From an uncultured Bacilli bacterium (GTDB taxonomy: Bacteria > Bacillota_I > Bacilli_A > RF39 > UBA660), in NCBI GenBank assembly GCA_947631155.1, contig CANRKG010000005.1:629-64628 (forward strand): a DNA stretch of 64,000 bases, given 5' to 3'. Position numbers and translations under genes: made by a program. A model generated the notes under the pieces. It saw nothing but the letters and a program-made list of their open reading frames with translations. It ran no database searches and was not told the origin of the DNA. The stretch's first letter is position 1, and every line of letters begins with the position of its first letter. Shown piece after piece: positions 33,660 through 56,907 of the stretch.

Positions 33660-33666
33660 TAAAATT

Positions 33667-35679: not shown

Positions 35680-37242
35680 ATGATTTTTAGAAAACCATAT
35701 GCATTCCTAATTAAAAATTTTAGGAAAATACATATTTTATTATTTATATTATGCTCATTCTTATTATATAAAACTATGCAGTTAGTTGGATTTGTCAAAG
35801 ATTTTATTACTTATGTTAGTTATGATCCTTATTTAGAACCAATTACTAAGTATACAAGCGTTATATTTTATATTTTTATTCTTAGTGTAATAGTAATATC
35901 TATTACTTTATTACTGTTATTAAGAAGAAAAAATAAACCCTGGATTTTGTATTTGATTCCAATTGTTACATATATATTTATTTTAGTTTTATTTATGTCA
36001 ATTCAAAATTATTTTGTTGGTTATGAAGGTGAAACTTCAACTGCTACGGCAAGAGCTTTTCGAGATTTCTTAAATATTGGAACTATACCGCAATATGTAA
36101 CACTAATTATTTTGTCAATCAGAATATTAGGTTTAGATTTAAAAAAATTTAGTTTTGGAAATGATGAAGAATTTTTAGAGTTAGATCAAAATGATAAAGA
36201 AGAAGTTGAAGTTAGTATTAATTTTGATAAACATATTTTTCAAAGACTTTTTAAAAAGACATTACGTTTATTAGGATATTTTTATCAAGAACATAAACTG
36301 ATTGTTAATATAGTATTTGTTTTAGTTATGATATTTTTAATAGGTTCATCAGCCTTATATATTATGAATCATAAACCAGTAGCAGAAACAAAAGTTTTAA
36401 ATGCTAATGGCTATTCAATTTCTGTAAATGAAAGTTATTTTACTAATTTAGATAAGATGGGGAATATTTTAGAACAAGATAGTAACTTTGTAGTGTTAAA
36501 TTTAACTGTTAAAAATAATAGTTATAAAAGAAAATTAAATATGTCTAACTTTCATTTAGTAAATGGTAAACATGATATAGTTTTTTCTGGAAGTACTTAT
36601 AGTAAATATTTTACTGATATAGGTAAAGAATATAAAGTTAGAGATTTTGAAGCAGGTGAAGAAAGAACTTTTGCTTTAATATTTAAGGTTGATAAAAAAT
36701 TATCAAAAAATAACTTTGTTTTATACTACCAGCAATATCAATCATATAAAAATATTTATTTAAGAAAACTTAAGTTAAATTTAAAAGAAATTTCTACTAT
36801 AGTTAAAAATCCTTCTAAAAATATTAATGAAGAATTAATTGTAACTTATCCTAATGGTACTAAGAAAAATATGATTTTTGAAACTGTAAATATAGTTGGT
36901 GAAACTACTTATAGAAAAGAAACTTGTGATGAAGATCAAAATTGTTTTATCGATACATTTGATATAAAACCTTTAGGAAATTATAAGGTATTACAAATTA
37001 ATTTTGCATCAGATGACTTTGAAGGGGAAGAATTGATTGACTTTTCTATTAATTATGGTAAAATTAGATATATAGATAATGAGAATATAACACGAGAGTT
37101 AAAGATAGAAGATGCAACAGATAATGCAGAATACTTAGGAAATTACTTGTATATTAAAATACCAACTAATTTAGAAACTGCTAAAAGTATAGAATTTATT
37201 TATACATTAAGAAATCAACAATATAGTTATAAAATTAAATAA
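35680..37242 (+). CDS. Polytopic membrane protein with C-terminal DUF4352-like beta-sandwich domain; first gene of the cluster
   Basis: Very strong RBS AGGAGGAGGGG. About five TM segments, then NFVVLNLTVKNNSYKRKLNMSNFHLVNGKH, which is typical of DUF4352-type domains (judged by eye). Confidence 0.6.
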   Translation: MIFRKPYAFLIKNFRKIHILLFILCSFLLYKTMQLVGFVKDFITYVSYDPYLEPITKYTSVIFYIFILSVIVISITLLLLLRRKNKPWILYLIPIVTYIFILVLFMSIQNYFVGYEGETSTATARAFRDFLNIGTIPQYVTLIILSIRILGLDLKKFSFGNDEEFLELDQNDKEEVEVSINFDKHIFQRLFKKTLRLLGYFYQEHKLIVNIVFVLVMIFLIGSSALYIMNHKPVAETKVLNANGYSISVNESYFTNLDKMGNILEQDSNFVVLNLTVKNNSYKRKLNMSNFHLVNGKHDIVFSGSTYSKYFTDIGKEYKVRDFEAGEERTFALIFKVDKKLSKNNFVLYYQQYQSYKNIYLRKLKLNLKEISTIVKNPSKNINEELIVTYPNGTKKNMIFETVNIVGETTYRKETCDEDQNCFIDTFDIKPLGNYKVLQINFASDDFEGEELIDFSINYGKIRYIDNENITRELKIEDATDNAEYLGNYLYIKIPTNLETAKSIEFIYTLRNQQYSYKIK

Positions 37243-39042: not shown

Positions 39043-39804
39043 ATGAAGAGAATTAAGTATAAAAAACAATTAGTAATTTTATCTATTGTAATAATATTAT
39101 GTCTAATTTCTATTATAATTTTTAAACCCTATTATAAATCTAAAGATAGAGTGAGAAAAATAAAAAACTTTAATGAAAGTAAAGAAAATATAAAGCCACT
39201 TGGATGGTTAAGAGTTCAAGGAACTAATATTGATTTTCCAATTATGTATTACTATGATGTTGAAGATGTTGGAGATCCTACTTATGATTTAGGTTGGAGT
39301 TTTGATAATAATAGAAAATTAGCTAATAGAACAGTTATTTTATCGCATAATATGAGAAATGTTTCAAGTAAGCCTTTAATAGGAGATAAAGAACATGCGA
39401 GATTTGAGCAATTAATGGGATATATATATTATGACTTTGTAAAAGAAAATAAATATATTCAATATACAATAGATGGAAAAAATTATCTATTTAAAATATA
39501 TGGAGTATCTCTTCAAAAAGAAAAAGATATCGATTTAGAAAATCTAGACAAAGATGAGCTAGAAGATTATATAAAATATACTAAAGAACAGAGTTACTTT
39601 AAATTTGATATTAATGTTAATAAGAATGATAAATTAATAACATTAATTACATGTACAAGATTCTTTGGTAATAATGATTACTCATTTGTAGTGGATGCTA
39701 GGAAAGTGAGAAAAACTGAATTAATTAAGAATTATAAAGTGACAGAAAACGATAGTTATAACAAAATTAAAAAAATGTTGGAAGGAGATGATAAAAATGA
39801 ATAA
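39043..39804 (+). CDS. Sortase family transpeptidase (class B-like)
   Basis: N-terminal TM segment, LGWLRVQGTNIDFPIMY, His in VILSHNM, catalytic TLITC motif and downstream Arg (VVDARKV). Confidence 0.8.
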   Translation: MKRIKYKKQLVILSIVIILCLISIIIFKPYYKSKDRVRKIKNFNESKENIKPLGWLRVQGTNIDFPIMYYYDVEDVGDPTYDLGWSFDNNRKLANRTVILSHNMRNVSSKPLIGDKEHARFEQLMGYIYYDFVKENKYIQYTIDGKNYLFKIYGVSLQKEKDIDLENLDKDELEDYIKYTKEQSYFKFDINVNKNDKLITLITCTRFFGNNDYSFVVDARKVRKTELIKNYKVTENDSYNKIKKMLEGDDKNE

Positions 39805-42800
39805 AAAATGGGGTAAAAAATTATTGCTAGTATTATTAATTATAAGTGTAATTTACTTTCCTAATGATATCCAGGCAAAGAAAAATAAATGCACAGTGGA
39901 TCCTGAGGATTTCTTTGATGTTAGCAAATATAGTACAAACCCATTAACAGGTTATAGCAACGGACATTATATATATGGCATCAATGCTAGAACAATTAAA
40001 ATTACAGTTAGTAAACCTAAAAGATATCAGGTATTTATCTATAAAGGAGCAATTGATACAGTGTCTGGTGCTGAACACTTGGCTGGACTTAGCCAAGGTG
40101 ATTTAAATAAAATGTATGGTAAAGGAAAAATCTCAAAAACGAAAATAGAAGTTGGAGATTTAGAAAAGGATTATACAATTAAAGTAGAACCTGGTACTGA
40201 GGCTTTAGTAGTAGTTGTATATAAAGGAGATAAAGATACTAAAGCAACACAATCTGACAAATGTAACAATACAACAGGAAAAAGTAAAGACGGTTGTTGT
40301 ATTGGATATTTTAAACAAAATGGTGAGGATGATGAAATTTATGGAACGGGTGCTAGTACATTTGTTGAAAATCCAACTGATAATTTTTTAGTTCCGAATT
40401 TACGTGCTGTAGGTGCTAGTACTTCAGGGGTTAGTAATGCATGTACTAATGCTTATAATGGGATATTCCAACCTGTTAATAAAGAATATGAAAAAGATGC
40501 AGAAAATTTTACTATTAAAAACTGGAGCGGAGATTTAAATACATGGAGAAATGAATATTTTAATAAAATGTTTCCTTATTGTACCACTCCTTCTGTTGCA
40601 TTTAACTTAAGTGATCATAATATTAAAATTATTGCTAATAAATTGTTACGTATGTTTAAATACATTTCACAATTACAAAGCGTTGGTTCGGCTGGTTATG
40701 ATAGTATAAATGCTGAAATTAATAGGATAAAAGATGATTTAGAAAATAGACATCTTTCAAATAATTATTATATAAAAGATAATGGAACTTCTATTGGTAA
40801 CTCTAATATTTTAAATTCTTCTTTACAATGTAATTATAGTGATCTTGTATATAATAAAACAGAAAAAAAAGTAGAATATAAAGATGGTTCAGGAGAGTCT
40901 GATTATTTGTATGCTGAAAAAGGTAGTATTAGTGTTGATATAAAAACACTTTCATCAAAAAAACGCACATATAAAGTTTGTGATACAGCATGTTATGAAC
41001 ATTTAAAAGTGGTTTATAGTCCACCACAAGTTGTTAAAGCTGGATTATGTTTCCAATATAAAGTAACAATCAAGAGTGTAACTGATTGTGGAGCTGATTT
41101 TAATGAAGGATTAAAAGATATATTATCTAAACCTCCAGGTGATCCTAACGGTATGTATCCTGAAATGTGTTCAGCAACACCTATCTGTGATGGTAATGAA
41201 ACTAAAGTTTCAGCAGGACCATCTAAAGATTTTGATGATTGTGTATCTACTTGCGACGGAGGTGAATATACACAATCTTGTATAAATAAATGCTATAAAA
41301 AAGTTTATGGTAATACTTCTAAAAAATCTTCTAGTGACAATAAAATTCAAAAAAGTAGTAATGAAAATAAAACAGATAATATTAAAGAAGTGAATCCATC
41401 ATTTATGATACAAAATAATAATAATAACAGTAATTTAATTAACATTGCAAATATTAGTAAATTAAAAAGTGATGATGATTTTACAGAATATTTTGATGGA
41501 AATAAATTACCTGGAGAATATAAAAATATATGTGGTTCTAACAAAAACATAAGAGACCATATTGATGATTGCGCAGAATATTTCTTTACAGCAAAATCAG
41601 TTAAGCCATATGGACATTATAGCTGTAATAATAATGGACATTGTTCTTGGAATCAAACTGCTACAGCTACAAATTGTAATTCTAGTTATTATGGTTGTGA
41701 AATTGCTCGAGTAGCAACTTATTATGCTAGAGATTTGGAGTCTACTAAAATGTTAATCAAAAGGTTAATAGGAGGATCTTTAGCAGGTTTAAGTAGTGAA
41801 GATAGACGATATATAGTGAATAATAATGGAATATTAGTTCAACGAAAAAATTCTGGCTGGTATTGTCAAATGTCTTGTTCACATCATGGTTGTACTAATG
41901 ATAAGGCATTAACTAGTGGTGATTATACAGATTTAATGAATGAAAATTTAAAAGCAATAAATCAAGCTCTTCGTGATTGTAATGAATTAGTAGTAGGTAA
42001 TAATAATGATCCATGTGAGCCTTCTAACGGAGTAAAAACTTCTACCTTTGACATAAATATAAAGACTAATACTAAACGTGGTAGTGATGAACCTGGAACA
42101 AAAACTGGTAGTAATAAATTACATTCTTCTCTTGTTGATCCACCTGAACCTAATTGTCCTGATGACAAAATGTTTGTTAAAGCGGATAAAAACGATTCTT
42201 CTTCATCACTAAATGGTATTTTTGGAACTTGTTATAATGAAGTAGGTCAAGATGATAATGGTAATAGAGTTCATTATCAAACTACGATTACTTTCCCAGG
42301 ATCATGGATTGATTTAAAAACAGGTGAAGTTTTCTATGATTGTAAAGAGGAAGGTTATAAGAATAAAGTTCAATATTACTGTACACCATTTGATTCATTT
42401 AATGTAAATACTAATTGGTGGAACTGGGCTGTTAATAATGAGTATAATGGTTCTGCACCAGCACCAGATGATTGGAATATAGAAGCACATTTAGGATTCG
42501 TAAATGAAAGAAATGAAGATGTTGGTTTTGGTAAATATAAATGGCATATTGGTTTCCAATGTTTCTATTCTCAATTGGATGAAATAATAGGATCACCACT
42601 ACCACCACCAGATGGTCCATCATGTTATCGTGGTAAAGAAGGAACTTCAGAAGAATGTCCTGATGATTCTGATAAGAAGGGTACATCCACAAAAGTAAAT
42701 TATGATATTAGAATAGTTGATTTAGAAAATTTATTTCCTAATAACAGATTACGTGGATTTAACTGGGGTGATGCTGCTCAATTAAAATCTACTGATCCAC

Positions 42801-43132
42801 AAATTCAAACAGCTTTAAAAACTACAGGCTATGGTGTTTCTCCAGTAGATTATTCACATATTGTTCAAGGATTAGATTCATATGGTGGTGAAGGTGGAGA
42901 AAAAATCTATGATAAAGATTATGATTTAAGAGTAGTATTAAATGCAGATAATGTTGCTAACATAAAAAATGAAAAAATAGATGACTTTAGTGGAAACTAT
43001 ACAGCAGTAAATAATATTCCAGGACTTTATTATTATAGAATGCCAGATACGTTCTTAAGTTTAGTTAGCTCATATGATATAAATTGGGAACGAGGAAAAA
43101 ATAGTAAAATGGCTATTAAAGTTACAAAGTAG
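39797..43132 (+). CDS. Large secreted cysteine-rich protein (~1,110 aa), unknown function
   Basis: Sec-type signal peptide (KKLLLVLLIISVIYFPNDIQA|KK). About 35 Cys by my count, many in CxxxC or CxnC clusters. Internal poly-N/S linker. No LPXTG, lipobox or C-terminal TM segment. Confidence 0.7.
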   Translation: MNKKWGKKLLLVLLIISVIYFPNDIQAKKNKCTVDPEDFFDVSKYSTNPLTGYSNGHYIYGINARTIKITVSKPKRYQVFIYKGAIDTVSGAEHLAGLSQGDLNKMYGKGKISKTKIEVGDLEKDYTIKVEPGTEALVVVVYKGDKDTKATQSDKCNNTTGKSKDGCCIGYFKQNGEDDEIYGTGASTFVENPTDNFLVPNLRAVGASTSGVSNACTNAYNGIFQPVNKEYEKDAENFTIKNWSGDLNTWRNEYFNKMFPYCTTPSVAFNLSDHNIKIIANKLLRMFKYISQLQSVGSAGYDSINAEINRIKDDLENRHLSNNYYIKDNGTSIGNSNILNSSLQCNYSDLVYNKTEKKVEYKDGSGESDYLYAEKGSISVDIKTLSSKKRTYKVCDTACYEHLKVVYSPPQVVKAGLCFQYKVTIKSVTDCGADFNEGLKDILSKPPGDPNGMYPEMCSATPICDGNETKVSAGPSKDFDDCVSTCDGGEYTQSCINKCYKKVYGNTSKKSSSDNKIQKSSNENKTDNIKEVNPSFMIQNNNNNSNLINIANISKLKSDDDFTEYFDGNKLPGEYKNICGSNKNIRDHIDDCAEYFFTAKSVKPYGHYSCNNNGHCSWNQTATATNCNSSYYGCEIARVATYYARDLESTKMLIKRLIGGSLAGLSSEDRRYIVNNNGILVQRKNSGWYCQMSCSHHGCTNDKALTSGDYTDLMNENLKAINQALRDCNELVVGNNNDPCEPSNGVKTSTFDINIKTNTKRGSDEPGTKTGSNKLHSSLVDPPEPNCPDDKMFVKADKNDSSSSLNGIFGTCYNEVGQDDNGNRVHYQTTITFPGSWIDLKTGEVFYDCKEEGYKNKVQYYCTPFDSFNVNTNWWNWAVNNEYNGSAPAPDDWNIEAHLGFVNERNEDVGFGKYKWHIGFQCFYSQLDEIIGSPLPPPDGPSCYRGKEGTSEECPDDSDKKGTSTKVNYDIRIVDLENLFPNNRLRGFNWGDAAQLKSTDPQIQTALKTTGYGVSPVDYSHIVQGLDSYGGEGGEKIYDKDYDLRVVLNADNVANIKNEKIDDFSGNYTAVNNIPGLYYYRMPDTFLSLVSSYDINWERGKNSKMAIKVTK

Positions 43133-43143: not shown

Positions 43144-43587
43144 ATGAATAAAGCTATGTTAACAGTAGGAATTATTTTATTAAGTATAATTGCCTTAGGA
43201 GTTATAAATGTAATTCAAAATTATACAACAGGTCAAGAATTAGATTATTATTTGTTAAAAGAAACTACAGAAGCAGCTATGGAAGATGCAGTGGATTTAA
43301 GTTATTATACTGAACAATCAACTATTAGAATGGATAAAGAAAAATTCGCTGAAAGTTTTATTAAAAGATTTGCTAGAAGTGTTGATGATCGTAGAAGCTA
43401 TCAAATTAGCTTCTATGATGTCAATGAAATTCCACCAAAAGCCAGTGTGGAAGTAAAATCTGCTACTAGTTATACTTTTAAGTCATCTGCTGTTGATATT
43501 ACAACAAGATTAGATATGATTGTTGAAAATAATAATAAAAAGGATCCATTAGCTTATAAACTTGCCAGTACTATAAAAGCTAGTTAA
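43144..43587 (+). CDS. N-terminally anchored small protein, TadE/pseudopilin-like (tentative)
   Basis: Short charged leader plus hydrophobic helix (MNKAMLTVGIILLSIIALGVINV), then a beta-rich domain of about 120 aa. Located directly upstream of the CpaB-like gene. Confidence 0.45.
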   Translation: MNKAMLTVGIILLSIIALGVINVIQNYTTGQELDYYLLKETTEAAMEDAVDLSYYTEQSTIRMDKEKFAESFIKRFARSVDDRRSYQISFYDVNEIPPKASVEVKSATSYTFKSSAVDITTRLDMIVENNNKKDPLAYKLASTIKAS

Positions 43588-43607
43588 ATACATGAAAGGA
43601 GAATAAA

Positions 43608-44411
43608 ATGGGTAATTTAAGTGTTGGTATTAAAAAATTTCTTTCTAATAAAAATACAGTTACAATTTTAGGTGTTGTTGCTGCTGTATTTGTATTATAT
43701 TTTGGATATAATTCTAAAGTAAATAAAGCTATTACACCGATTAAAGTTCCTTACGCTAAAGAAACTATTTCTCCAGGAGAACAAATTACTGATGATATGA
43801 TAGGAGAAAAAAATGTTTCTAGTGAAACTGTAAATGATGGTAGTGCTTATATAAATAAAAGTGAAGTTTTAGATAAATATTCAAATGCAGATACAGTTAT
43901 TCCTAAAGGAAGCTTATTTTATAAAAGAGCAGTTGTAACTAAAGAGCAATTACCTGATAAGATAATATATGATTATCCTAATGGTTATGTATTATTTAAT
44001 TTATCAGTTGATATAAATTCAACATACGGTAATTCAATTTATCCAGGAAATTATATTGATATTTACTTAAAAGCAATGAATGCTGTTGAAGAAGGACAAG
44101 AAATAACAACAACTGATAAAATTATGGTTGGTAAATTATTAGAAAATGTTGAAGTATTAGCAGTTTTGGATAGTAATGGTAATAATGTATTTGCTAATCT
44201 TGATGAAAAAGGTTCTCCTAGTATGATTATATTTGCGGTTCCTTCAGAGTATTATATATTATTAAAAAAAGCTGGTTTCTTAAGAGCTTATGATTCTACA
44301 TTAATACCAGTACCAACTGATGAGAGTTTAAAAGATAATCCAGGAGAATTAAAATTAAGTAGTAATGATTTAAAAGACTTTATTAATAGAGTAACAGAAT
44401 GGACAGAATAG
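43608..44411 (+). CDS. CpaB/RcpC-like Flp pilus assembly protein (SAF domain)
   Basis: TM anchor, SAF-like ITPIKVPYAKETISPGEQITDDMI, then GYVLFNLSVDINSTYGNSIYPGNYIDIYL and LLENVEVLAVLD, matching the CpaB pattern. Confidence 0.65.
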   Translation: MGNLSVGIKKFLSNKNTVTILGVVAAVFVLYFGYNSKVNKAITPIKVPYAKETISPGEQITDDMIGEKNVSSETVNDGSAYINKSEVLDKYSNADTVIPKGSLFYKRAVVTKEQLPDKIIYDYPNGYVLFNLSVDINSTYGNSIYPGNYIDIYLKAMNAVEEGQEITTTDKIMVGKLLENVEVLAVLDSNGNNVFANLDEKGSPSMIIFAVPSEYYILLKKAGFLRAYDSTLIPVPTDESLKDNPGELKLSSNDLKDFINRVTEWTE

Positions 44412-44439
44412 AATAAAAAGGAAGGTAGTGGGTTATTAG

Positions 44440-45753
44440 ATGAATGAAAATGTTTTTGATAAACTTGACTTTGGCCCTTTAAAGCCACTTCTTGATAATG
44501 ACGATATCACAGATATTTCATTTTGTAATGGTGGTCAAATTTGGATTCGTTCGTTAACCCAAGGATCTCAGAGAGTTGAAATTCAAGGATTAACTCCTGA
44601 GTTTATGGAAAAGTTAGCATTTCAATGTTCTAACGTTATGGGAACAACCTTTAATAATGCCAAACCTTTCTTAGATGCTGAATCCGCAGAATTACGTTTC
44701 AATTTTGTTCATCAATCGATAGCTACTAATGGGATTGCATGTGTTATTCGTAAAACTCCAGCAAAAATTAGATTAGAGAAAAATAAACTTCTAAAAGAAG
44801 ATTACTTTACAGCAGATATACATGATATTTTAATTAAATGTGTTGAAGGTCATTGCAATATAATAGTGGCTGGGGAAACTGGTTCTGGTAAAACAGAGTT
44901 TGTAAAATATTTAGCAAGTCATACTAAACAGGATGAAAAGATTATTACAATTGAAGATACACTGGAGCTTCATTTGGATAGGATTTTTCCACAGCGTGAT
45001 ATTGTGGCTATGAAAACTAATAATGTAGCTAGTTACTCAGATGTTTTGGTAACTTGTATGAGACAAAATCCAAAATGGATATTGTTGTCAGAAGTCCGTA
45101 GTGCTGAAGCAGTTAGTGCGGTTCGTAACTCAATTTCTTCAGGACACAATATTTTATCAACAATACATGCTGATAAAGCTAGCGCTATTCCATATCGTTT
45201 ATATAGTTTGATGGAAACTGATTTAGATGTTAATCAATTTTTATCTACAATTTATAGATATATTCAATTAGGTGTTCATATTAAAGCTTATTATAGTAAA
45301 GAATATGGTAAATTTCATCGTGAAGTAGATGAAGTTGTTGAATTTTACGTTGATGATGATAATGTTCCACAATCTCATACAATATATAGAAAAGTATATG
45401 GTAAACCACCTATGCAAAATAAACCTAGTGCACATTTAATAGAGTATTTAGAAAATCAAAATATTGATATAAATGCAATAACAGCTAATATGAAAGAAGG
45501 CGAACAACCTCCTAATCAAGCTTCAGCAACAAATATACCACAAGCTAATAATGTTGCAGTAGCAACCGTTCAAGCTGTAGCAAAACCAGTTCAAGCAGTT
45601 ACAAATGTTAGTGCAGTGCCAGTACAATCTGTTAATGTAAATACTGTTCAAGTACCTCCTGCGCAACAACCTAATGTGGCCAATGTTGGACAAGCTGTAC
45701 CAAATAATTTGGCAAATATCATGCCACCACCAATAAATAAAACTAATCAATAA
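44440..45753 (+). CDS. TadA/CpaF-type secretion ATPase (T2SS-E/VirB11 superfamily) with low-complexity C-terminal tail
   Basis: Walker A GETGSGKTE, Asp box ITIEDTLEL, Walker B WILLSEVRSAEA and His box SGHNILSTIHA. It is followed by two T2SS-F-like genes. Confidence 0.85.
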   Translation: MNENVFDKLDFGPLKPLLDNDDITDISFCNGGQIWIRSLTQGSQRVEIQGLTPEFMEKLAFQCSNVMGTTFNNAKPFLDAESAELRFNFVHQSIATNGIACVIRKTPAKIRLEKNKLLKEDYFTADIHDILIKCVEGHCNIIVAGETGSGKTEFVKYLASHTKQDEKIITIEDTLELHLDRIFPQRDIVAMKTNNVASYSDVLVTCMRQNPKWILLSEVRSAEAVSAVRNSISSGHNILSTIHADKASAIPYRLYSLMETDLDVNQFLSTIYRYIQLGVHIKAYYSKEYGKFHREVDEVVEFYVDDDNVPQSHTIYRKVYGKPPMQNKPSAHLIEYLENQNIDINAITANMKEGEQPPNQASATNIPQANNVAVATVQAVAKPVQAVTNVSAVPVQSVNVNTVQVPPAQQPNVANVGQAVPNNLANIMPPPINKTNQ

Positions 45754-45768
45754 AAGGGGTGAAATTAC

Positions 45769-46662
45769 ATGGAACTAATTTTATTATTACTTATAGCAGT
45801 AGTAGTAATGTTATATAGAGGCTACGAAGGTAAAGACGTAGGTAAATTTATTACTAGTCATATTGGTACTGTGTATGAAAAATTTGCCCCTTTTTCTTTC
45901 AAAGTAGTTCGCGAAAAAACTAAGCAATTAGGAAAAGAATACACTGTTAGACAATATTCAATACAGATTGTATTATTTTCTACTTTTGCAGGAGTAATTA
46001 CATATTTATATTTTTATAATATTTTAATTAGTATTGTGTATATAGTAGCGGTAATTATGGTTATTCCATATTTATCATATTTAAGGTGTAAAAGAGTATA
46101 TAGTGAATTTCTTTTTGAACAAATACAAGTATATACATCTAATACTATTATGGAATTTGCAACAACACAATCATTTGTAAAAGCAATTGAAGGAGTTAGA
46201 GACTCAGGTGTTTTAGAAGATCCAGTAAAAACAGATGTAGAGCATATGATAGAATTAGCTTATCAAAATGGTAGTATTGAAGAATCCTTAAAGTACATGA
46301 GTAATTTATATCCATATTATATAGTTAAAAATATGCATCAATTGTTTTTACAAATCACTAAAGAAGGTGCGAGAAATTCTGCTGATAGTTTGGAGAACAT
46401 GCAACAAGATATAGATATGTTAGTTGAAAGCGTTTACCGTGATAGACAAGATAGAGCAACTTTCCATAAGCAGTTTTTACAATTTGGAATCATGCTATAT
46501 TTCATGCTTATGTTAACTCAATATCTATTAGGACGTGAATCATATCTATTATTACTTGAAAAGCCAGTTATCAAAATATTATTACATGGTGCTCTTATTG
46601 TTAATAGTATCTTTCTTTTAAAAGGTGAGAAATATTATAATGAGAATGTAGGTGCTGAATAA
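45769..46662 (+). CDS. TadB-like (T2SS-F domain) inner-membrane platform protein
   Basis: TM-cytoplasmic helical domain-TM layout. Position is directly after the ATPase. Confidence 0.6.
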   Translation: MELILLLLIAVVVMLYRGYEGKDVGKFITSHIGTVYEKFAPFSFKVVREKTKQLGKEYTVRQYSIQIVLFSTFAGVITYLYFYNILISIVYIVAVIMVIPYLSYLRCKRVYSEFLFEQIQVYTSNTIMEFATTQSFVKAIEGVRDSGVLEDPVKTDVEHMIELAYQNGSIEESLKYMSNLYPYYIVKNMHQLFLQITKEGARNSADSLENMQQDIDMLVESVYRDRQDRATFHKQFLQFGIMLYFMLMLTQYLLGRESYLLLLEKPVIKILLHGALIVNSIFLLKGEKYYNENVGAE

Positions 46663-47444
46663 TGGATATAATTTTAGTTTGTGCAATTTTAATATTTATA
46701 TTATTTTATAATAAAACTGTTGACGGCAAAAAATTCTTAATCGATAATGAAAAATATTTTCAAGCTTTAAGAGAAGAAGATTATGATTTCTTATTATATG
46801 CTAAATATGGTGAGGAAGCAGAACCAGATCTTTTATTCCGAAAAAGAATAACAACCGCTTTAATTTTTGGCTTTATCTTTTTAATAATTTTTTTAAATGA
46901 AATATCTTTAATTAATATTGTGTTAGCATTAATTGTTATGTTTGGGGTTTTTAAATTTCCTTATTTACAATTGAAACAATATTATAAAGCACATTTACAT
47001 GAAATTGACATTATGTTGCCATACTATTTAAAAAGTTTAGAAATTTTAATTCAACATTATACAGTTCCAGTAGCAATTGGTAAATCAATTGATGATGCAC
47101 CGGAAATATTTAAACCAGGTTTACGACAAATTGTTGAAAGAGTTAATTCAGGTGATTCAAGTATTGATCCATATATGGAATTTTCTAACACTTATCCTGT
47201 TAGAGATTCAATGCGAATGATGAGATTACTATATCGTTTAGGAATTGGATCCCAAGAGAATAAACAAGAACGTTTAATGATGTTTTCAAGAACAGTTTCT
47301 AATTTACAAAATAAAGCCCGTGAAATTAAATATAAAGAACGTTTAGGACATATGGAAAGTCAAACTATGATTATGTTAGTTGTAACAGGTGTTGCAGTTA
47401 TGTTGATTATTCTAGTGTCAATGATGGGAATGTTTAATGTATAA
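46662..47444 (+). CDS. TadC-like (T2SS-F domain) inner-membrane platform protein
   Basis: LPYYLKSLEILIQHYTVPVAIGKSIDDAPEIFKPGLRQIVERVNSGDS fits the GspF/TadC repeat pattern. 1-nt overlap with the upstream gene. Confidence 0.65.
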   Translation: MDIILVCAILIFILFYNKTVDGKKFLIDNEKYFQALREEDYDFLLYAKYGEEAEPDLLFRKRITTALIFGFIFLIIFLNEISLINIVLALIVMFGVFKFPYLQLKQYYKAHLHEIDIMLPYYLKSLEILIQHYTVPVAIGKSIDDAPEIFKPGLRQIVERVNSGDSSIDPYMEFSNTYPVRDSMRMMRLLYRLGIGSQENKQERLMMFSRTVSNLQNKAREIKYKERLGHMESQTMIMLVVTGVAVMLIILVSMMGMFNV

Positions 47445-47468
47445 AATTAATTAAATTAACAATATATA

Positions 47469-47496
47469 TTGTAAATTTAAAAAAATTTGGTATAAT
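47469..47496 (+). promoter_or_regulatory. Internal sigma-A-like promoter ahead of the Flp-like pilin ORF
   Basis: TTGTAA, 16-nt spacer, extended -10 TGGTATAAT. Confidence 0.55.
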
Positions 47497-47532
47497 AATT
47501 ATGTAAGATAAGAAAGGATGTGTATTTAATAT

Positions 47533-47700
47533 ATGAAAGCAGCTACAGGTGAATTAAACTTAACAGTTATTACTTTAATTGCTATTGCAGCCATTGTAGG
47601 ATTCTTTTGGTTTATGTGGAATGGTAACGGAGATAGTAGTATTCAAAATAGTATTAGTAAACAATGGGAAACGATAAGTGATGATAGTAACGTTAACTAA
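47533..47700 (+). CDS. Flp-like small pilin candidate (55 aa), absent from the supplied ORF track
   Basis: My translation: MKAATGELNLTVITLIAIAAIVGFFWFMWNGNGDSSIQNSISKQWETISDDSNVN. It has a short leader ending in Gly, a hydrophobic helix and a short polar tail. An AAAGGA RBS and its own promoter lie upstream. Confidence 0.6.
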   Translation: MKAATGELNLTVITLIAIAAIVGFFWFMWNGNGDSSIQNSISKQWETISDDSNVN

Positions 47701-47722
47701 AGCAGTTAGGATGTGATTTTCT

Positions 47723-48145
47723 ATGCGTGATGCCTTTGGTGGAATCGTTAATATTACATTTATAGTTGTCTTTATGGTTATTGTAAATGGTTATTTAGCA
47801 TTTGCTGCTAATTATAATAAGGCATTTAAATATAAGAATAAAATTATTAATATTATTGAGCAAAATGAAGGCTATGATGCTAATGCATTAAAAAAAATTG
47901 ATGAATATCGTAGATCGATTGGTTATAGTCTAGATACAAATATTGAAGTTAGCGGAGCTGAATGTGTAAAAGAGGAAGGCTTTTGTTATAAGGAAGAACT
48001 AGTAGATACTTCTGGGCAATTTAGTAAAAAATACTATACTATAACAACAGCTGTTAATATTGATATGCCTATTCTTAGAAATTTTTTACCTAAAGTAAAA
48101 TTATTTCAAGTAAGTGGAACAACAAAGACAATAACTAAACATTAA
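47723..48145 (+). CDS. TadE-like pseudopilin candidate
   Basis: The N-terminus MRDAFGGIVNITFIVVFMVIVNG shares an A-x-G-(x)-[LV]N[LI]T[VF]I pattern with the Flp-like ORF. The C-terminal YYTITTAVNIDMPILRNFLP resembles TadE. Confidence 0.5.
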   Translation: MRDAFGGIVNITFIVVFMVIVNGYLAFAANYNKAFKYKNKIINIIEQNEGYDANALKKIDEYRRSIGYSLDTNIEVSGAECVKEEGFCYKEELVDTSGQFSKKYYTITTAVNIDMPILRNFLPKVKLFQVSGTTKTITKH

Positions 48146-48160
48146 AAAAGAGGTGATACT

Positions 48161-49144
48161 TTGAATGTCATAGTTGCTAACCAAAGAAAAGACTCATTGT
48201 CAAGTTTGGATATAGAAGTAATAAAGAGCATAGTAGGTGAGTTTGAAGCCGAGGAATTAGTTGCTATGTTCAAAGACTTCTTTTTTGATAGAATGATTTT
48301 AGATGTTACAGCAATTAAAAACTATCAAGAAATTTCTAATATTCAAAAATTAGCTATGGAACTTGGTGAAAGTAAATTAATATTAGTACTTCCAGATGAT
48401 GTTTGTTCTTCGTCTAGTTATTTGTCTAATATTATTTCAATGGGAATTTATAATTTTACTAATAATGTTAATGCAATTAAACAATTAGTATTAAGACCTA
48501 ATAGTTATAAAGATGTAGCTAAAATACAACAATTAAATAATGCTTCTATTGAAATTAGTAATAGAGTTAATAAAGAAAATAAAATTATTGGTATTAGAAA
48601 TATTACAGATCATGCCGGAGCAACTACTTTAACTTATATGTTAAAAAAAGAATTAACTTATATTTATGGTGGTTCAGTCTATGCTATTGAAGTTAATAAA
48701 AGAGATTTTTCATATTTTAATGAAAAAAATATGTTTTCTGTTAATGAATCAGAGTTAGCTAAAAAAATCGCTGAACTTCAACATCCCGTTGCAGTTATTA
48801 TTGATTTAAATGACTGCAAGATGGATACGATGTGTGATGATATTTTATATTTACTTGAACCTAGTACTATTATGTTAAATAAATTAATTAATAAAAATAG
48901 AAGTGTTTTTGAAAACTTAAATAATAAAAAAATTTTATTAAATAAAAGTATGCTTACAAATAAAGAAGTCAGTGAATTAGAGTATGAAGCTAATACCAAA
49001 ATGTTCTATAATATACCACCACTAGATGAAAGAAAGAAAAATTCTGTTCTTCATGAATTATTATTTCGCTTAGGATTAATAGATAATACTGGAGCAAAGA
49101 AAGAAGAAGGAAATAAGATATTTGGTATATTTAGTAGAAAATAA
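48161..49144 (+). CDS. TadZ/CpaE-like protein: receiver-like N-domain plus ParA/MinD-like domain with degenerate Walker A
   Basis: IIGIRNITDHAGATTLTYMLKKEL sits where the ParA/MinD P-loop (G-GKT) would be, with the Lys absent. TTG start after AGAGGTGA. Confidence 0.5.
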   Translation: MNVIVANQRKDSLSSLDIEVIKSIVGEFEAEELVAMFKDFFFDRMILDVTAIKNYQEISNIQKLAMELGESKLILVLPDDVCSSSSYLSNIISMGIYNFTNNVNAIKQLVLRPNSYKDVAKIQQLNNASIEISNRVNKENKIIGIRNITDHAGATTLTYMLKKELTYIYGGSVYAIEVNKRDFSYFNEKNMFSVNESELAKKIAELQHPVAVIIDLNDCKMDTMCDDILYLLEPSTIMLNKLINKNRSVFENLNNKKILLNKSMLTNKEVSELEYEANTKMFYNIPPLDERKKNSVLHELLFRLGLIDNTGAKKEEGNKIFGIFSRK

Positions 49145-49165: not shown

Positions 49166-49195
49166 TTGACATTTGTAACTAAAATAGTTTACAAT
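49166..49195 (+). promoter_or_regulatory. Internal sigma-A-like promoter ahead of the VirB2-like genes
   Basis: TTGACA, 18-nt spacer, TACAAT. Confidence 0.5.
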
Positions 49196-49220: not shown

Positions 49221-49580
49221 ATGGAATTATTTCAAATAGGAAAAAAACAGGTAACATTTGAGTCAGATTCTTGTAAAGGCTTAGGTCCTATTGTCAGATT
49301 AATAAAAAAAGGCTTATTCCCTATAATTCAAATTGGTATTCCAATTTTACTAATTGTTATGGGTACTATAGATTTGGGAAAGGCAGTTATTTCTAGTGAT
49401 GAAAAAGAAATTAAAGGTGCACAAAGCAAATTAATTAAACGTTGTATTTATGCAATAGTAATATTCTTTATGGTTACATTAGTTACTATTTTGATGTCAC
49501 TAGTAGGAGTGTCTAAGGATGATAATGTTAGTGAAGATCAGGCTACAAGTTGGAGTACTTGTTGGGATAGTATAAAATAA
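49221..49580 (+). CDS. VirB2/TrbC-like two-TM hairpin protein (no cleavable signal peptide)
   Basis: IPILLIVMGTIDLGKAVISSDEKEIKGAQSKLIKRCIYAIVIFF. Cys residues lie before TM1 and after TM2. Paralogue of 49678 and of the N-terminus of 14379. Confidence 0.6.
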   Translation: MELFQIGKKQVTFESDSCKGLGPIVRLIKKGLFPIIQIGIPILLIVMGTIDLGKAVISSDEKEIKGAQSKLIKRCIYAIVIFFMVTLVTILMSLVGVSKDDNVSEDQATSWSTCWDSIK

Positions 49581-49633: not shown

Positions 49634-49677
49634 GCTATACTTAAAGTGATACTTTGTAAAGTAAGGAAGTGCACACT

Positions 49678-50112
49678 ATGTTTTTAAAATGTATGAAGTT
49701 CTTTCTTTTGTTTTTTGCTGTATTTACAGTGTTTTTCACTGGTGATGTAAAAGCAAAAGAATTTAATATAAATAATTATGTACAAATTGCAGAAGAATGC
49801 GATAATTCAGATCCAAATTCATGTTGTTCTATATTAGGAAACGTTGATGATGAAGATTCAGTAGCCTGGTTAGTACAGAGGTTATTAAATTATTTAAAGG
49901 TATTAGGCCCATCAATTGCCATTATTTTGGGTAGTATTGATTTTGGTAAAGCAATTATTACATCAGATGAAGAAAATATGAAAAAAGCTCAAGTAAGATT
50001 CATTAAAAGAATTATTGCAGCTGTTTGTTTATTTTTCGTGCCATTATTTACACAAATATTATTGGGATTATTTGGTATTACTAGTAGCAATGCTAGTTGT
50101 GGATTAAGTTAA
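49678..50112 (+). CDS. VirB2/TrbC-like two-TM hairpin protein with Sec signal peptide
   Basis: Signal peptide MFLKCMKFFLLFFAVFTVFFTGDVKA|KE, then NSCCSILG...IAIILGSIDFGKAIITSDEENMKKAQVRFIKRIIAAVCLFF...ASCGLS. ATG 49678 lies 8 nt after AAGGAAG. Confidence 0.65.
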   Translation: MFLKCMKFFLLFFAVFTVFFTGDVKAKEFNINNYVQIAEECDNSDPNSCCSILGNVDDEDSVAWLVQRLLNYLKVLGPSIAIILGSIDFGKAIITSDEENMKKAQVRFIKRIIAAVCLFFVPLFTQILLGLFGITSSNASCGLS

Positions 50113-50133
50113 AGAAGAAAAGAGGTGAGGCTT

Positions 50134-52203
50134 ATGTTTCAGTTAGGGTTTTCTTTAGAAAGTGATACCCAGAAACCGCATTGGTGGATGGATGTAATAA
50201 GAGCGTTTTTTGCTTTGTTTGATAAAGTTGTATATTCACTAATAATAATTATGTATGAAATTCTTTTTAATCTAGCTGATGCAACTATTATTCAGTCAGA
50301 AACTATGGTTAATTTTTATAGTAGGGTTCAATTGATTATTGGTGTTTATATGATTTTTAAAGTATCAATTTCTCTTATGCAAGCTGTTATGAATCCTGAT
50401 CAATTAACTAATAAAGATACTGGGTTGGGTAAAATTATTACGAGAATTGTTACAATGTTAGCCCTATTTGCAGCTATTATTCCTCTAAATATTCCAAATG
50501 CTGAAGAGGGTAGTTATAATGCCTATTTAAATGAGAATGGTTTATTATTTGGTGTTTTATATTCTTTACAAGCTAGAATATTAGATCAAAATGTATTAGG
50601 GAAATTGATTTTAGGAACTAAAGGTGGAACTACTTCATCCACGGCAGAGAATGGAGATGAGTTGCTGGGTGGCGATAAGTCATCAAGTGCTAGATCTTTT
50701 GCAACATTTGTTTTAAAGACATTTGTTAGAATTAATATGAAAAAAAATGCTACTGAAGAAGGTCCAGCAGATGCTTCTAATTATATGTGTAGAAATTTAT
50801 CTTCTGATGAAATAAAAAAAGTTAATACATATAAAGATGAAGCTGGAACGACATATCCAATTCAAATATTAAATAACATAAATGAGGAATGTGATTCCAA
50901 TGGTAATAATTTAGACGATAAATATTTATTTGTTTATACGCCAATTATTTCGACTATTGTAGGAGTAGTATTTATATTTGTTTTATTCGGTTTTTGTATT
51001 GATATTGCGATTAGGGCTATAAAGTTAGCTGTGCTTAGGTTATTAGCCCCAATTCCAATTCTTAGTTATATTGATCCAAAGTCTTCTAAAGATGGTTCTT
51101 TTGCAGCTTGGGTTAAAACTCTAACCTCGACATATTTAGATTTATTTTTGAGATTACTGATTATCTTCTTTGTATTGTTTTTAGTTCAAGAAGTAATAGA
51201 GCACGGTCTAGAGATACCAATTGGTACTGGAATAGTAGGAATGATATCTACAATATTTGTCTTTATTGGAATGTTCTATTTTGCAAAAATGGCACCTAAG
51301 TTTCTTAAAGACGCTCTAGGCTTAAAGGGAAATCTTAGTAATTTTGGTTTATCAGCCATGTTAGCAGGAGCAGGAGCTTTTCGTACAGGTGGTAGTTTGT
51401 ATGATGCTTTTGATGCAGGACGAACTGCTACTGATGCTCAAATTGCAGCTTATAATCAAGGAAAACAAGCTCCTGGGGTAGGACAAAGTTATACTAGTGG
51501 GCGTGATTATATGGCACAACAGCTTACTGGTGATAAAAACATGACTTATAGGCAAATGCACCGTGGTGAAAAAGCACTGGATAGAATGGGTCTAACTCCT
51601 GGTCGAGTAGATGCTGAAAAAGAAAAAATGTATGACTATATGGATGAAGCTGCTGTTATGAATTCTATTAAAGATAAAGTTAATAATAATGGTTGGTCTT
51701 CTCTTACTGATGACGAAAAGGCTAAGGTAGAAAATGCATATCGTGAAGTACATGGAATAAATCCAAATGCAGAATTAACTGCAGAACAGATTAGTGATCT
51801 GCATGCGAGAGGAGCTACAGATGCATATAATGCTGCTCAAACTAAGGCTAAGAAACAAGAAAGTAAATATAAAACTATGGATGATGAATTAACTAAACGT
51901 GGTGGAAGTAGAAATTCTTATCGTGCTAAATATGGTGATTTACAAGAAAGGCATCCTGGTGAAAGAAATACTAGATTTAGTGATTTACTTACTCATGAGG
52001 GTCGAGATGCCATTCGAACAGGTGACTTTAGAGAAACAATGCGTAATGTAGCTGCAATGCCTAGAAATGGACGTTTAGCTAGTGTTGATAAAATGAATGA
52101 AGAAATAGATGCTGCTAGGAGAGCTGATGAAGCAATGACGGCAAGAGTTAATGCTGCTACAGCACCTTTAAGAGAAAGAGAAAGAGAACAAGATAATGAT
52201 TAA
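50134..52203 (+). CDS. VirB6/TrbL-like polytopic channel protein (Tn916 Orf15/TcpH-like architecture) with long charged C-terminal tail
   Basis: About 6-8 TM segments over about 390 aa, then a hydrophilic A/R/D/E-rich tail of about 300 aa. Position is between the VirB2-like and VirB3/VirB4-like genes. Confidence 0.6.
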   Translation: MFQLGFSLESDTQKPHWWMDVIRAFFALFDKVVYSLIIIMYEILFNLADATIIQSETMVNFYSRVQLIIGVYMIFKVSISLMQAVMNPDQLTNKDTGLGKIITRIVTMLALFAAIIPLNIPNAEEGSYNAYLNENGLLFGVLYSLQARILDQNVLGKLILGTKGGTTSSTAENGDELLGGDKSSSARSFATFVLKTFVRINMKKNATEEGPADASNYMCRNLSSDEIKKVNTYKDEAGTTYPIQILNNINEECDSNGNNLDDKYLFVYTPIISTIVGVVFIFVLFGFCIDIAIRAIKLAVLRLLAPIPILSYIDPKSSKDGSFAAWVKTLTSTYLDLFLRLLIIFFVLFLVQEVIEHGLEIPIGTGIVGMISTIFVFIGMFYFAKMAPKFLKDALGLKGNLSNFGLSAMLAGAGAFRTGGSLYDAFDAGRTATDAQIAAYNQGKQAPGVGQSYTSGRDYMAQQLTGDKNMTYRQMHRGEKALDRMGLTPGRVDAEKEKMYDYMDEAAVMNSIKDKVNNNGWSSLTDDEKAKVENAYREVHGINPNAELTAEQISDLHARGATDAYNAAQTKAKKQESKYKTMDDELTKRGGSRNSYRAKYGDLQERHPGERNTRFSDLLTHEGRDAIRTGDFRETMRNVAAMPRNGRLASVDKMNEEIDAARRADEAMTARVNAATAPLREREREQDND

Positions 52204-52219: not shown

Positions 52220-52582
52220 ATGAATTATTTAATTCCTGCTAATACAAAAAAAGGTCAATTAATAATGGGAATATTTAGACCTTTTGATTTAATACTATTT
52301 GGTACAGGTATACTTATTACAGTCATATTTATGGCGTTATTACCTTTAACTTCTACAGCTATAACAATAATTATATTATTACCAGCAATGATTACAGGTT
52401 TTTTGGTAGTGCCTGTACCGTATTATCACAATATTTTAAATGTTATCCTAGAATTAATTGAATTTTTTACTAATCAAAGGAATTATGAATGGAAAGGTTG
52501 GTGTATTAGAATTGGCGAAAACAGTAGAAAAAGGAAGAAGATCAACAGAGGATTGGCTACCAGTACGAGCAATCCAAAATAA
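52220..52582 (+). CDS. PrgI/TcpE/VirB3-like small two-TM protein
   Basis: IPANTKKGQLIMGIFRPFDLILFG followed by two TM segments resembles the Tn916 Orf17/PrgI family. Directly precedes VirB4. The last ~100 nt overlap the next ORF. Confidence 0.6.
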   Translation: MNYLIPANTKKGQLIMGIFRPFDLILFGTGILITVIFMALLPLTSTAITIIILLPAMITGFLVVPVPYYHNILNVILELIEFFTNQRNYEWKGWCIRIGENSRKRKKINRGLATSTSNPK

Positions 52583-53066
52583 TATGATATTTACTTATGG
52601 AAATTATAAGGTCACAGGGGTGAAGATTACTCCTCGTAATATCTTTATTTTGGATGGTTCAACTCAAAATAATATCTTAATAAGTTTGAAAAATTTTTAT
52701 AATATGATTGATTTTGAATTTTGGTTAGTTGTAGCAGATAGACCTGTTGATTTATCAATTCATATGTCTCAATTGCAACTTCAACTAAATGACACCCAAG
52801 AACCAGCAATTAGAAAATTAATTTTACAAGATTTAGATAAGGATCAAATGTTTATTAGTAATAATGTAGTTGATACAGAGTATTATTTTCTATTTAAAGA
52901 AAAAAATGAGGATATTATTCAGAAAAAAATTAGATTATTAATTAATGGATTAGCTACTTGTGGGTTAAATGCAGCACAAGTTAGTAATGAAGACTTAAGA
53001 GTTGTTTTAGACAATTTCTTGAATGGGGGAAATACGACAGAATTTGGAACGGTGATGCCAGTATGA
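52485..53066 (+). CDS. VirB4-like ATPase, N-terminal domain fragment (separate ORF)
   Basis: RRSTEDWLPVRAIQNNMIFTYGNYKVTGVKITPRNIFIL matches the conserved N-terminus of Gram-positive VirB4 (Tn916 Orf16/TcpF type). The start is uncertain (ATG 52485 or TTG 52458). Confidence 0.6.
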   Translation: MNGKVGVLELAKTVEKGRRSTEDWLPVRAIQNNMIFTYGNYKVTGVKITPRNIFILDGSTQNNILISLKNFYNMIDFEFWLVVADRPVDLSIHMSQLQLQLNDTQEPAIRKLILQDLDKDQMFISNNVVDTEYYFLFKEKNEDIIQKKIRLLINGLATCGLNAAQVSNEDLRVVLDNFLNGGNTTEFGTVMPV

Positions 53067-56894: not shown

Positions 56895-56907
56895 AATGGA
56901 GGTTTAT

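Follow-up and report, generated by a model that had tools for sequence, protein, structure and literature searches.

How does a Tad-like pilus module mature its pilins when no prepilin peptidase is encoded beside it, and what would such a module serve? The question is raised by a locus of an uncultured Bacilli bacterium of the RF39 lineage (GenBank assembly GCA_947631155.1, contig CANRKG010000005.1), from which a stretch of 64 kb, hereafter called the window, was analyzed. The module lies on the + strand at 43144–49144 and had originally been predicted to be a complete Tad module (CpaB-TadA-TadB-TadC-Flp-TadE-TadZ) lacking a prepilin peptidase. That prediction missed the context, since the filament module is embedded in a type IV secretion system (T4SS) gene cluster, which as a whole occupies 35.7–61.2 kb. 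The missing peptidase by itself matters little; the main point is the T4SS-embedded filament module, together with its link to conjugative plasmids such as pLS20 and pXO2. We consider it probable that the locus specifies a Tad/archaeal-like type IV filament module that is integral to a monoderm T4SS cluster, builds a contact filament, and has its pilin leader removed in trans by an A24 peptidase.

The Tad-like module and its conservation

All eight open reading frames (ORFs) named in the original prediction are present on the + strand. The assignments given below are those reached here, with lengths in amino acids (aa) and transmembrane segments abbreviated as TM.

43144–43587, + strand: DUF5411 protein, 147 aa, with an N-terminal TM (PF17424, 2e-48)
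43608–44411, + strand: CpaB/RcpC-like protein with an N-terminal TM, a SAF-like domain, and an RcpC-like domain (sub-threshold profiles)
44440–45753, + strand: secretion-superfamily hexameric ATPase of the CpaF/FlaI/VirB11 class (PF00437, NCBIfam, PDB, hhalign)
45769–46662, + strand: TadB-like platform protein, 297 aa (remote T2SSF link; homologous to pLS20 p38 and to a 277-aa protein of pXO2)
46662–47444, + strand: TadC-like second platform protein, 260 aa (topology and weak hhalign matches; corresponds to pLS20 p39)
47533–47700, + strand: 55-aa pilin-like protein, probable major subunit (conserved prepilin-like N-terminus)
47723–48145, + strand: 140-aa protein, putative minor pilin (leader followed by a hydrophobic helix)
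48161–49144, + strand: TadZ/CpaE-like protein, 327 aa (predicted fold with a flavodoxin/receiver-like N-domain and a MinD/ParA-fold C-domain)

The description as a complete Tad module is retained in part. A Tad-like assembly module without a local peptidase is present; however, the tests for Flp and TadE fail, and the CpaB, TadB/C, and TadZ assignments are sub-threshold or remote, so that "complete" was an overstatement. Since neither the pilin nor the pseudopilin families of a Tad system were found, the module is described here as working like a Tad system rather than as being one. Its nearest relative is the uncharacterised gene trio of pLS20 and pXO2.

A survey with the ATPase, counting one genome per species, returned at least 576 relatives, of which the best 80 (71–88% identity) were used for the conservation and synteny counts. 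Their hosts are uncultured gut metagenome-assembled genomes labeled "Bacilli", "Tenericutes", or "Erysipelotrichaceae", along with "Mycoplasma sp. CAG:877" and Candidatus Faecimonas. Homologues of each module gene occur in 68–80 of these 80 loci in an unchanged order, which indicates real genes under selection rather than chance ORFs. Additionally, the exact ATPase protein is present on four metagenome contigs, and a megablast search of the module against plasmids and phages gave no match.

The secretion ATPase

The three ATPase motifs on which the original prediction relied, GETGSGKTE, ITIEDTLEL, and SGHNILSTIHA, were all found and represent the Walker A, Asp-box, and His-box motifs. The T2SSE domain of a Tad system is present, with a PF00437 match of 96.8 bits and 1.3e-27 (cut-off 24.9). 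At the subfamily level, by its sequence matches, the protein appears ambiguous, being about equally close to VirB11, TadA, and FlaI. The NCBIfam models score 115.5 bits for VirB11 (TIGR02788), 104.5 for conjugal TadA (TIGR03819), 93 for TrbB, 92 for FlaI, and 81 for ComGA; every curated cut-off lies above the score obtained (249.95 for TIGR02788 and 373 for TIGR03819; NF010475 gave 76.5 vs 389), and none of the VirB11 equivalog models was matched above its cut-off. The closest PDB sequences are FlaI (3e-19) and CpaF (6e-19), VirB11 being weaker (6e-14), and the hhalign comparison with CpaF reached 99.6%. The best plasmid matches belong to the pLS20 family, with 36–37% identity (gene 37; tblastn 9e-40), followed by those of the pXO2 and pXO1 types.

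The C-terminal tail of the ATPase (~residues 350–437, window 45490–45753) is of low complexity and rich in Q, V, P, N, and A. Its length is variable, and in many relatives, where the identity ends at ~residue 353, it cannot be aligned.

These scores bear on an explanation that we regard as unlikely, namely that the ATPase is the VirB11 of the T4SS and that the membrane proteins and small TM proteins beside it are lineage-specific inner-membrane subunits of the same system; no type IV filament would then be made, and thus no prepilin peptidase would be needed. Consistent with this explanation are the best NCBIfam match (VirB11 TIGR02788, 115.5 bits), the location of the genes inside the T4SS cluster, the failure of the Flp, TadE, and direct T2SSF tests, and the published reading of pLS20, in which p37 is annotated as VirB11 and p36 and p38–41 as unknown, with no filament module named (PMC8557374). 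However, the VirB11 score lies far under its cut-off of 249.95, FlaI and CpaF are nearer among the solved structures, and prepilin-like leaders occur on two proteins of the module. To our knowledge, VirB11 systems come without a tandem pair of TadB/C topology and without CpaB/RcpC-like or TadZ-like proteins, each of which is independently, if remotely, supported here, as described below.

The platform-like membrane proteins

The two proteins encoded after the ATPase had been called T2SS-F-like. Neither matches PF00482 directly at E ≤ 1; the links to T2SSF are remote, and stronger for the first protein. The 297-aa protein is predicted to contain N-terminal TMs, a cytoplasmic helical domain, and C-terminal TMs, and the prediction for the 260-aa protein is alike. 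The gene of the latter overlaps that of the former by ATGA, the two forming a tandem, translationally coupled pair directly downstream of the ATPase gene.

An exhaustive hidden Markov model (HMM) search of 1.84e9 representatives with the 297-aa family returned 270 clusters in all, and the family is therefore narrow. The homologue search with this protein was saturated by near-identical sequences, and a profile of its distant members retrieved only six proteins. A full-length member, P0257 (E=1.1e-9), matches T2SSF PF00482 with 2.3e-5 and 24.8 bits (cut-off 25.2) and the canonical TadB/C HMM with 6e-11. The extended family aligns with TadB+TadC over the cytoplasmic domain (hhalign 87%, P=4e-6), with pLS20 p38 (95%, P=3e-8), and with the 277-aa protein of pXO2 (96%, P=2e-9). 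Compared by hhalign, the 260-aa protein scored 56% (P=1e-4) with the 297-aa family, and its own family a weak 59% (P=9e-5) with pLS20 p39; the canonical TadB/C HMM was matched with E=2e-4 in a small database. Fused two-domain relatives of the platform proteins occur as well (P0239 and P0273). The TadC-like assignment of the 260-aa protein is weaker than the TadB-like assignment of its neighbor. The trio p37-p38-p39 that characterizes the pLS20/pXO2 type is thus represented in the module, the p39 link being weak.

The CpaB-like, TadZ-like, and DUF5411 proteins

The SAF/CpaB-like label of the protein at 43608–44411 has weak but consistent support from the RcpC profile, TIGR03177, and hhalign, all profile scores being sub-threshold: PF16976 gave 2.2e-5 and 24.8 bits (cut-off 28.8), SAF 0.03, and TIGR03177 1.8e-7 and 30.7 bits (cut-off 71), and the comparison with three canonical CpaB sequences gave 81% (P=1.3e-5) by hhalign.

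The 327-aa protein, previously labeled ParA/MinD-like, has no sequence match in Pfam, NCBIfam, or PDB, and the label is supported at the level of predicted fold. Its AlphaFold2 model, computed from a multiple-sequence alignment of 51 sequences, has two domains and a predicted local distance difference test score (pLDDT) of 80. Foldseek searches of PDB with this model returned IcmF (4e-7), ATPase-type HypB (6e-5), and ParA 3ea0 (1e-3), followed by MinD, FlhG, BcsQ, and Get3, all with a probability of ~1.0, which places the model among the SIMIBI NTPases; TadZ itself was not among the top 50 matches. The hhalign match to CpaE is confined to the P-loop region (P=0.017), and the Walker A motif is degenerate (HAGATT). 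On the model, the predicted domain layout is that of the TadZ/CpaE architecture. Profile searches against PDB sequences yielded nothing useful for the 297-aa, 327-aa, CpaB-like, and pilin families.

The protein at 43144–43587, one of two proposed to be TadE-like, is instead a DUF5411 protein; a similarity to TadE is absent in Pfam and in hhalign (<1%). For gut Clostridia, DUF5411 genes have been reported as neighbors of CpaF and PilC-like genes (PMC9523054).

The pilin-like proteins

The 55-aa protein consists of a six-residue leader (MKAATG), a glutamate, ~22 hydrophobic residues, and a short variable tail. In an alignment of 40 sequences, M1, A4, G6, E7, L8, T11, and T14 of its N-terminus MKAATG/ELNLTVIT (the slash marks the end of the leader) are invariant; the consensus MK(A/E/D)A(T/S)GEL(N)LTV(I)T is near-invariant, and its GEL(N)LTV(I)T motif occurs in 68 loci. 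The profile of the archaeal Pilin_N domain matches weakly (0.075 for the protein itself; 5 of 40 members match, the best with 0.0024). The proposal that this ORF encodes Flp was not sustained, as no PF04964 match at E ≤ 1 was obtained for any of the 40 members, hhalign gave 0.2%, and the Flp motif G/XXXXEY is absent, there being no EY in the protein.

Upstream of the 55-aa gene lie an AGGA Shine-Dalgarno sequence and, in a short intergenic gap, an extended -10 promoter-like site, TTGTAA-16-TGgTATAAT (47469–47496). The promoter and terminator scan found 129 sites vs 119 expected, overall not above chance in such AT-rich DNA.

The 140-aa protein was the second of the proposed TadE-like proteins, and this proposal likewise fell away: no match was found in Pfam (including TadE PF07811) or NCBIfam, and hhalign against TadE gave <1%. 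It carries the leader MRDAFG/G ahead of a hydrophobic helix, conserved in relatives as M(R/K)(D/E)(A/S)xG(G/S). A leader of the type M[KR]x[AS]xG followed by a hydrophobic helix is thus common to the 55-aa and 140-aa proteins, and in both families the conserved pattern is that of a class III signal peptide, with a short charged leader, Gly at -1, and ~20 hydrophobic residues, although the model matches are weak.

The prepilin peptidase

The family scans (Pfam or NCBIfam) covered 61 of the 65 window ORFs of at least 90 aa and, in addition, the 55-aa ORF; all ORFs with at least four predicted membrane segments were among them. The reported absence of an A24 peptidase is corroborated: the scans of the cluster and window ORFs returned no PF01478 member, and the GxGD(V/I)K-type motif is absent from all six frames of the whole window. 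Furthermore, none was found within ±10 kb in 84 related loci by a motif search in all frames combined with phmmer using a TadV-type enzyme, a procedure that, as a positive control, detected A24 enzymes in unrelated metagenome loci. Polytopic ORFs of the window were considered as hidden A24 enzymes and rejected, being identified as CDF, TspO, rhomboid, VTT/DedA, LspA, and VirB6 proteins; the ORFs with at least four TMs outside such families are those of the 520-aa protein (described below) and the 297-aa protein, for which no family match was obtained.

The absence of a local peptidase is less informative than had been supposed, and the assumption that Tad loci as a rule include an A24 gene is weak. 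In TXSScan/MacSyFinder, tadV is modeled as a "loner" that can be encoded apart, and no MSH locus carries its own prepilin peptidase gene (PMC6668835). In Bifidobacterium, tadV lies outside the tad cluster in every species having one, and 12 species with tad loci have no tadV at all (PMC13091076), and no peptidase is listed for the Tad-like cluster of the uncultured order TANB77 (PMC11680825).

The window itself holds the following gene, outside the cluster:

27131–27550, + strand: stand-alone canonical type IV prepilin, MNNKG/FTLVELLV..., ComGC-like

This protein matches TIGR02532 (IV_pilin_GFxxxE) with 32.1 bits (cut-off 16.3) and is ComGC-like with 4.5e-7. Its gene is preceded by a long AT-rich region, without pilus-assembly genes or a peptidase nearby. 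A prepilin of the GFxxxE type depends on a PilD/ComC-type enzyme. A canonical prepilin of this kind with no adjacent peptidase therefore implies an A24 enzyme elsewhere in the genome, and such an enzyme is very probably encoded outside the 64 kb. In view of the loner status of tadV, the Bifidobacterium and MSH precedents, and this prepilin, the missing local peptidase is not anomalous. In a metagenome scan with the canonical pilin, the matches were confined to generic N-termini of pilins from other low-GC organisms.

A further explanation accepts the filament as real and dispenses with an A24 enzyme; the leader would be retained or cut by a new intramembrane enzyme, by the rhomboid encoded at 9589–10791, or by the sortase-like protein of the cluster. 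We judge it decidedly unlikely. It would account for the lack of an A24 gene in the window and within ±10 kb of the 84 related loci, for an atypical leader in which E directly follows G with none at +5, for the 12 Bifidobacterium species with tad loci and no tadV (PMC13091076), and for a conserved sortase-like enzyme in the cluster with no visible substrate. However, the canonical GFxxxE prepilin argues for an A24 enzyme in the genome, and the rhomboid gene is of a housekeeping type and 34 kb distant. The sortase was rejected as a leader peptidase: from the predicted topology, its catalytic domain would be extracytoplasmic and the leader peptide cytoplasmic, so that it could not process the leader, and the leader of the 140-aa protein contains no sortase-type motif. 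Nor is the sortase the only protease-like gene, as had been stated, since an M23 peptidase gene (35004–35588) lies at the cluster edge and the window also encodes LspA, a rhomboid protein, Lon, and U32 peptidases.

The T4SS genes downstream

The module is followed by the genes of a T4SS, as listed below.

49221–49580 and 49669–50112, + strand: two paralogous VirB2-like T4SS pilins (PF18895 T4SS_pilin)
50125–52203, + strand: VirB6/TrbL-like polytopic channel protein (PF19597 TrbL_4, 6.9e-8, 32.6 bits; cut-off 27)
52220–52582, 52458–53066, and 53063–54853, + strand: VirB3/VirB4 ATPase in three consecutive ORFs (NF045975)
54885–56894, + strand: SpoIID-domain cell-wall hydrolase, a functional analogue of VirB1 (PF08486, 8.3e-8; TIGR02669, 2.6e-8)
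56896–57690, + strand: 264-aa bitopic protein with an N-terminal TM, VirB8 candidate by position alone (no significant family match)
57732–59894, + strand: VirD4-type coupling protein of the CD1115 family (NF045973, 308.8 bits, cut-off 250; PF02534, 8e-57)
59918–61219, + strand: 433-aa bitopic protein with one TM, the last gene of the cluster (weak matches only)

The set of VirB4, a CD1115-family VirD4, VirB6/TrbL, and a hydrolase, by which a Gram-positive conjugative T4SS is recognized, is present. The VirB2-like pilins match PF18895 with 2.4e-5 and 24.8 bits (cut-off 26.6), and their paralogy is indicated by an hhalign probability of 99.9%. The best promoter-like site of the region, TTGACA-18-TACAAT (11 of 12 matches; 49166–49195), lies in another short intergenic gap ahead of them. 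The three VirB3/VirB4 ORFs cover positions 2–97, 98–277, and 295–893 of the 894-aa Mycoplasma VirB4 model NF045975, which derives from an integrative conjugative element (ICE); the last ORF scores 355.7 bits and 3.9e-106 (below the 590 cut-off), and VirB4 is 78–85% identical in 59 loci. The arrangement is either a genuine split or the product of frameshifts or start-codon miscalls. The VirD4-type protein shows 27–28% identity to the VirD4-like protein of pLS20.

At 14379–15218 (+), 30 kb from the T4SS cluster, an NlpC/P60 hydrolase has a weakly T4SS_pilin-like N-terminal membrane region (PF18895, 0.0018).

The upstream surface proteins

The first part of the conserved cluster precedes the module and encodes surface proteins and a sortase-like enzyme.

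35680–37242, + strand: 520-aa polytopic membrane protein with four predicted TMs and a weak DUF4352-like ectodomain, the first gene of the conserved cluster
37255–39027, + strand: 590-aa surface protein, putative adhesin, anchored at its N-terminus and carrying a bacterial Ig-like domain (PF16403, 3e-16)
39043–39804, + strand: class B sortase-like transpeptidase (PF04203, TIGR03064)
39788–43132, + strand: putative adhesin or tip protein of 1114 aa, secreted or surface-located, with an N-terminal signal/anchor

The 520-aa protein has homologues in 66 of the 80 loci (median identity 42%), its sole Pfam match being DUF4352 (0.0017), and the 590-aa protein is present in 71 loci (median 37%). The 1114-aa protein has no Pfam or NCBIfam match and is fast-evolving, with a median identity of 28% across 75 loci. 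The sortase matches PF04203 with 6.7e-8 and 32.8 bits (cut-off 26.6) and TIGR03064 with 7e-14, below cut-off, and 73 relatives all keep its catalytic residues H102, C204 (in LITC), and R206. No C-terminal sorting signal was found on any cluster protein, and the cluster holds no recognizable sortase substrate.

The C-termini of the 590-aa protein and of the 433-aa protein at the end of the cluster share a G-x-G-x(3-4)-(D/N)PY-(V/I)-I motif (GQGNLDDPYVIAS and GKGTKKNPYIIR), which may represent a common module. In some relatives (loci L007, L009, L034, L041, and L072), an extra pair of genes, for a large secreted protein and a DUF5411 protein, lies upstream of the 520-aa homologue, which suggests a duplicating adhesin/DUF5411 cassette.

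Chromosomal setting and inheritance

The window carries a chromosome-type gene set, identified with Pfam and NCBIfam as BipA, DnaE, LspA, RluD, a CDF transporter, TspO, rhomboid, RuvX, MltG, U32 peptidases, GreA, trigger factor, Lon, spore-coat-like proteins, rubrerythrin, SpoU, and an M29 aminopeptidase, and housekeeping genes for a rhodanese, a VTT/DedA protein, and RmuC come next after the cluster. Nearly all genes lie on the + strand, the GC content is ~25% across the window, and that of the cluster equals that of its flanks. In most relatives, greA directly precedes the 520-aa homologue; here, a block of ~16 kb (19621–35004) separates greA (18967–19443) from the cluster. The position of the first gene directly after greA in most relatives argues for vertical inheritance rather than a recent ICE, and the cluster at 35.7–61.2 kb is one vertically inherited chromosomal unit.

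An alternative, in our judgment highly unlikely, takes the cluster not as an organelle of the host but as an integrated conjugative element or what remains of one. All of its recognizable relatives are indeed conjugation genes (pLS20, pXO2, the Mycoplasma ICE VirB4, and the CD1115-family VirD4), and a PD-(D/E)XK transposase-like gene lies at 32790–33659. However, no relaxase, integrase, or replication (Rep) family was found among the scanned ORFs of the 64-kb window, a few small ORFs lying outside the scan; the same gene order and the greA neighbor recur in most of the 80 genomes, with an ATPase 71–88% identical; and the GC content does not differ from that of the flanks.

The ~16-kb block contains genes for trigger factor, Lon, spore-coat-like proteins, the orphan pilin, rubrerythrin, U32, SpoU, M29, and M23 proteins, in addition to the transposase-like gene. 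Its SpoVID-like (LysM) and YsxE-like spore-coat genes at 25159–26869 (+), in a lineage publicly labeled Mycoplasma, Tenericutes, or Bacilli, hint that the organism may sporulate.

Proposed mechanism and significance

In the mechanism that we propose, the ATPase (44440–45753) would dock on a heterodimeric TadB/TadC-like platform (45769–47444), and together they would extract the 55-aa pilin from the membrane and polymerize it into a thin filament, which the 140-aa protein may prime or cap. The leader MKAATG would most likely be cut by an A24 enzyme encoded elsewhere and shared with the GFxxxE prepilin of 27131–27550. The CpaB-like protein may form an extracytoplasmic collar that spans the wall; the TadZ-like protein, which has probably lost catalytic activity, may position the machine; and the DUF5411, 590-aa, and 1114-aa proteins are speculated to supply adhesion. 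The filament would thereby make or tighten the cell-cell contact for the VirB2/VirB6/VirB4/VirD4 channel, through which a substrate may be transferred.

Several observations weigh against a filament of this kind. The top NCBIfam model for the ATPase is that of VirB11. The 260-aa protein has a weak T2SSF link, with an hhalign P=0.03 against TadB/C, and the AlphaFold2 model of the 297-aa protein, computed from a shallow alignment (76–100% identity), has a pLDDT of 52, at which its Foldseek matches are meaningless. The 55-aa family lacks any Flp match and has its glutamate at +1 instead of the usual +5; the class III signal TIGR04205 matches it weakly (0.0027); and the small proteins of the module have no detectable homology to those of pLS20 and pXO2. 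No A24 gene of the lineage was seen in the DNA covered, namely the 64-kb window and, for relatives, ±10 kb around the locus. Moreover, we know of no filament observed in these organisms or for pLS20. Nevertheless, a Tad/archaeal-like filament module within the T4SS cluster is considered the probable interpretation. The more specific proposal that the module builds a genuine type IV filament, which serves a Gram-positive T4SS as its mating or contact pilus, is put forward tentatively, as possible rather than expected.

The locus suggests that one widespread class of monoderm T4SSs carries its own Tad/archaeal-like filament machine, a class that includes the genetically tractable pLS20, allowing a test in B. 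subtilis, as well as B. cereus group plasmids of the pXO2 type. If the proposal is true, the conjugative pilus, said to be lacking in monoderm T4SSs, would be the product of the "VirB11 plus unknown" genes of pLS20 and pXO2; indeed, Gram-positive T4SSs have been stated to seem pilus-less and usually to be without VirB11 (PMC8092201, PMC8557374). The relaxase-less, chromosomally fixed version would then be, in this lineage of gut Bacilli with small genomes, a core organelle for contact-dependent exchange with other cells, comparable to the pair of T4SS and type IV pilus (T4P) in Saccharibacteria. The locus also marks a surface apparatus that is conserved in very common uncultured gut bacteria (at least 576 species-level genomes gave a match) and for which no relaxase was seen in the window.

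Comparison with known systems

In the literature searched, no paper was found that links pLS20 genes 38/39 to TadB/C or describes the present combination, and none that links RF39-like Bacilli to a T4SS or a Tad system. A functional precedent is provided by IncI (R64) and PAPI-1, in which a T4SS and an accessory or essential type IVb pilus (T4bP) reside on the same element and the type IV filament serves mating-pair formation (PMC12857230). Unlike the present locus, these are diderm systems with PilD-type peptidases and large pilins, and the classes of both their T4SS and their pilus are unrelated to those described here.

Patescibacteria (Saccharibacteria) resemble the locus in possessing a monoderm-type T4SS that is mostly relaxase-less, has arrays of VirB2-like pilins, and is chromosomally conserved in small-genome lineages (PMC12102498, PMC12857230). 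However, their T4P loci are separate and of the canonical type IVa, whereas the Tad-like module described here lies in the same gene string as the T4SS and is known from its genes alone.

The Tad/Flp (type IVc) systems of monoderms share with the module, as its parts are tentatively assigned here, a CpaB protein, an ATPase, two half-size platform proteins, a TadZ-like protein, a very small pilin without a globular domain, additional pilin-like proteins, and the lack of a secretin. In Bifidobacterium, TANB77, and gut Clostridia, the cluster likewise often lacks the peptidase (PMC13091076, PMC11680825, PMC9523054). Contrary to those systems, the pilin here is not Flp and lacks G/XXXXEY, TadE/TadF family members are absent, the ATPase is as distant from Tad ATPases as from VirB11, and the module is inserted in a T4SS cluster.

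The conjugation operons of pLS20 (genes 36–41) and of pXO2/pAW63-type plasmids differ from the present cluster in that the latter lies in the chromosome at a conserved site, the window showing no relaxase; CpaB-like, TadZ-like, sortase-like, and DUF5411 genes are added here, and the M[KR]xAxG leader is found only on the small proteins of this locus. In both, nonetheless, the order is the same: the ATPase comes after a small TM protein and before two membrane proteins of ~250–280 aa, which are followed by small TM proteins, VirB2, and the T4SS. The ATPase is 36–37% identical to p37, the first membrane protein is homologous, and a VirD4 of the CD1115 family is present on both sides.

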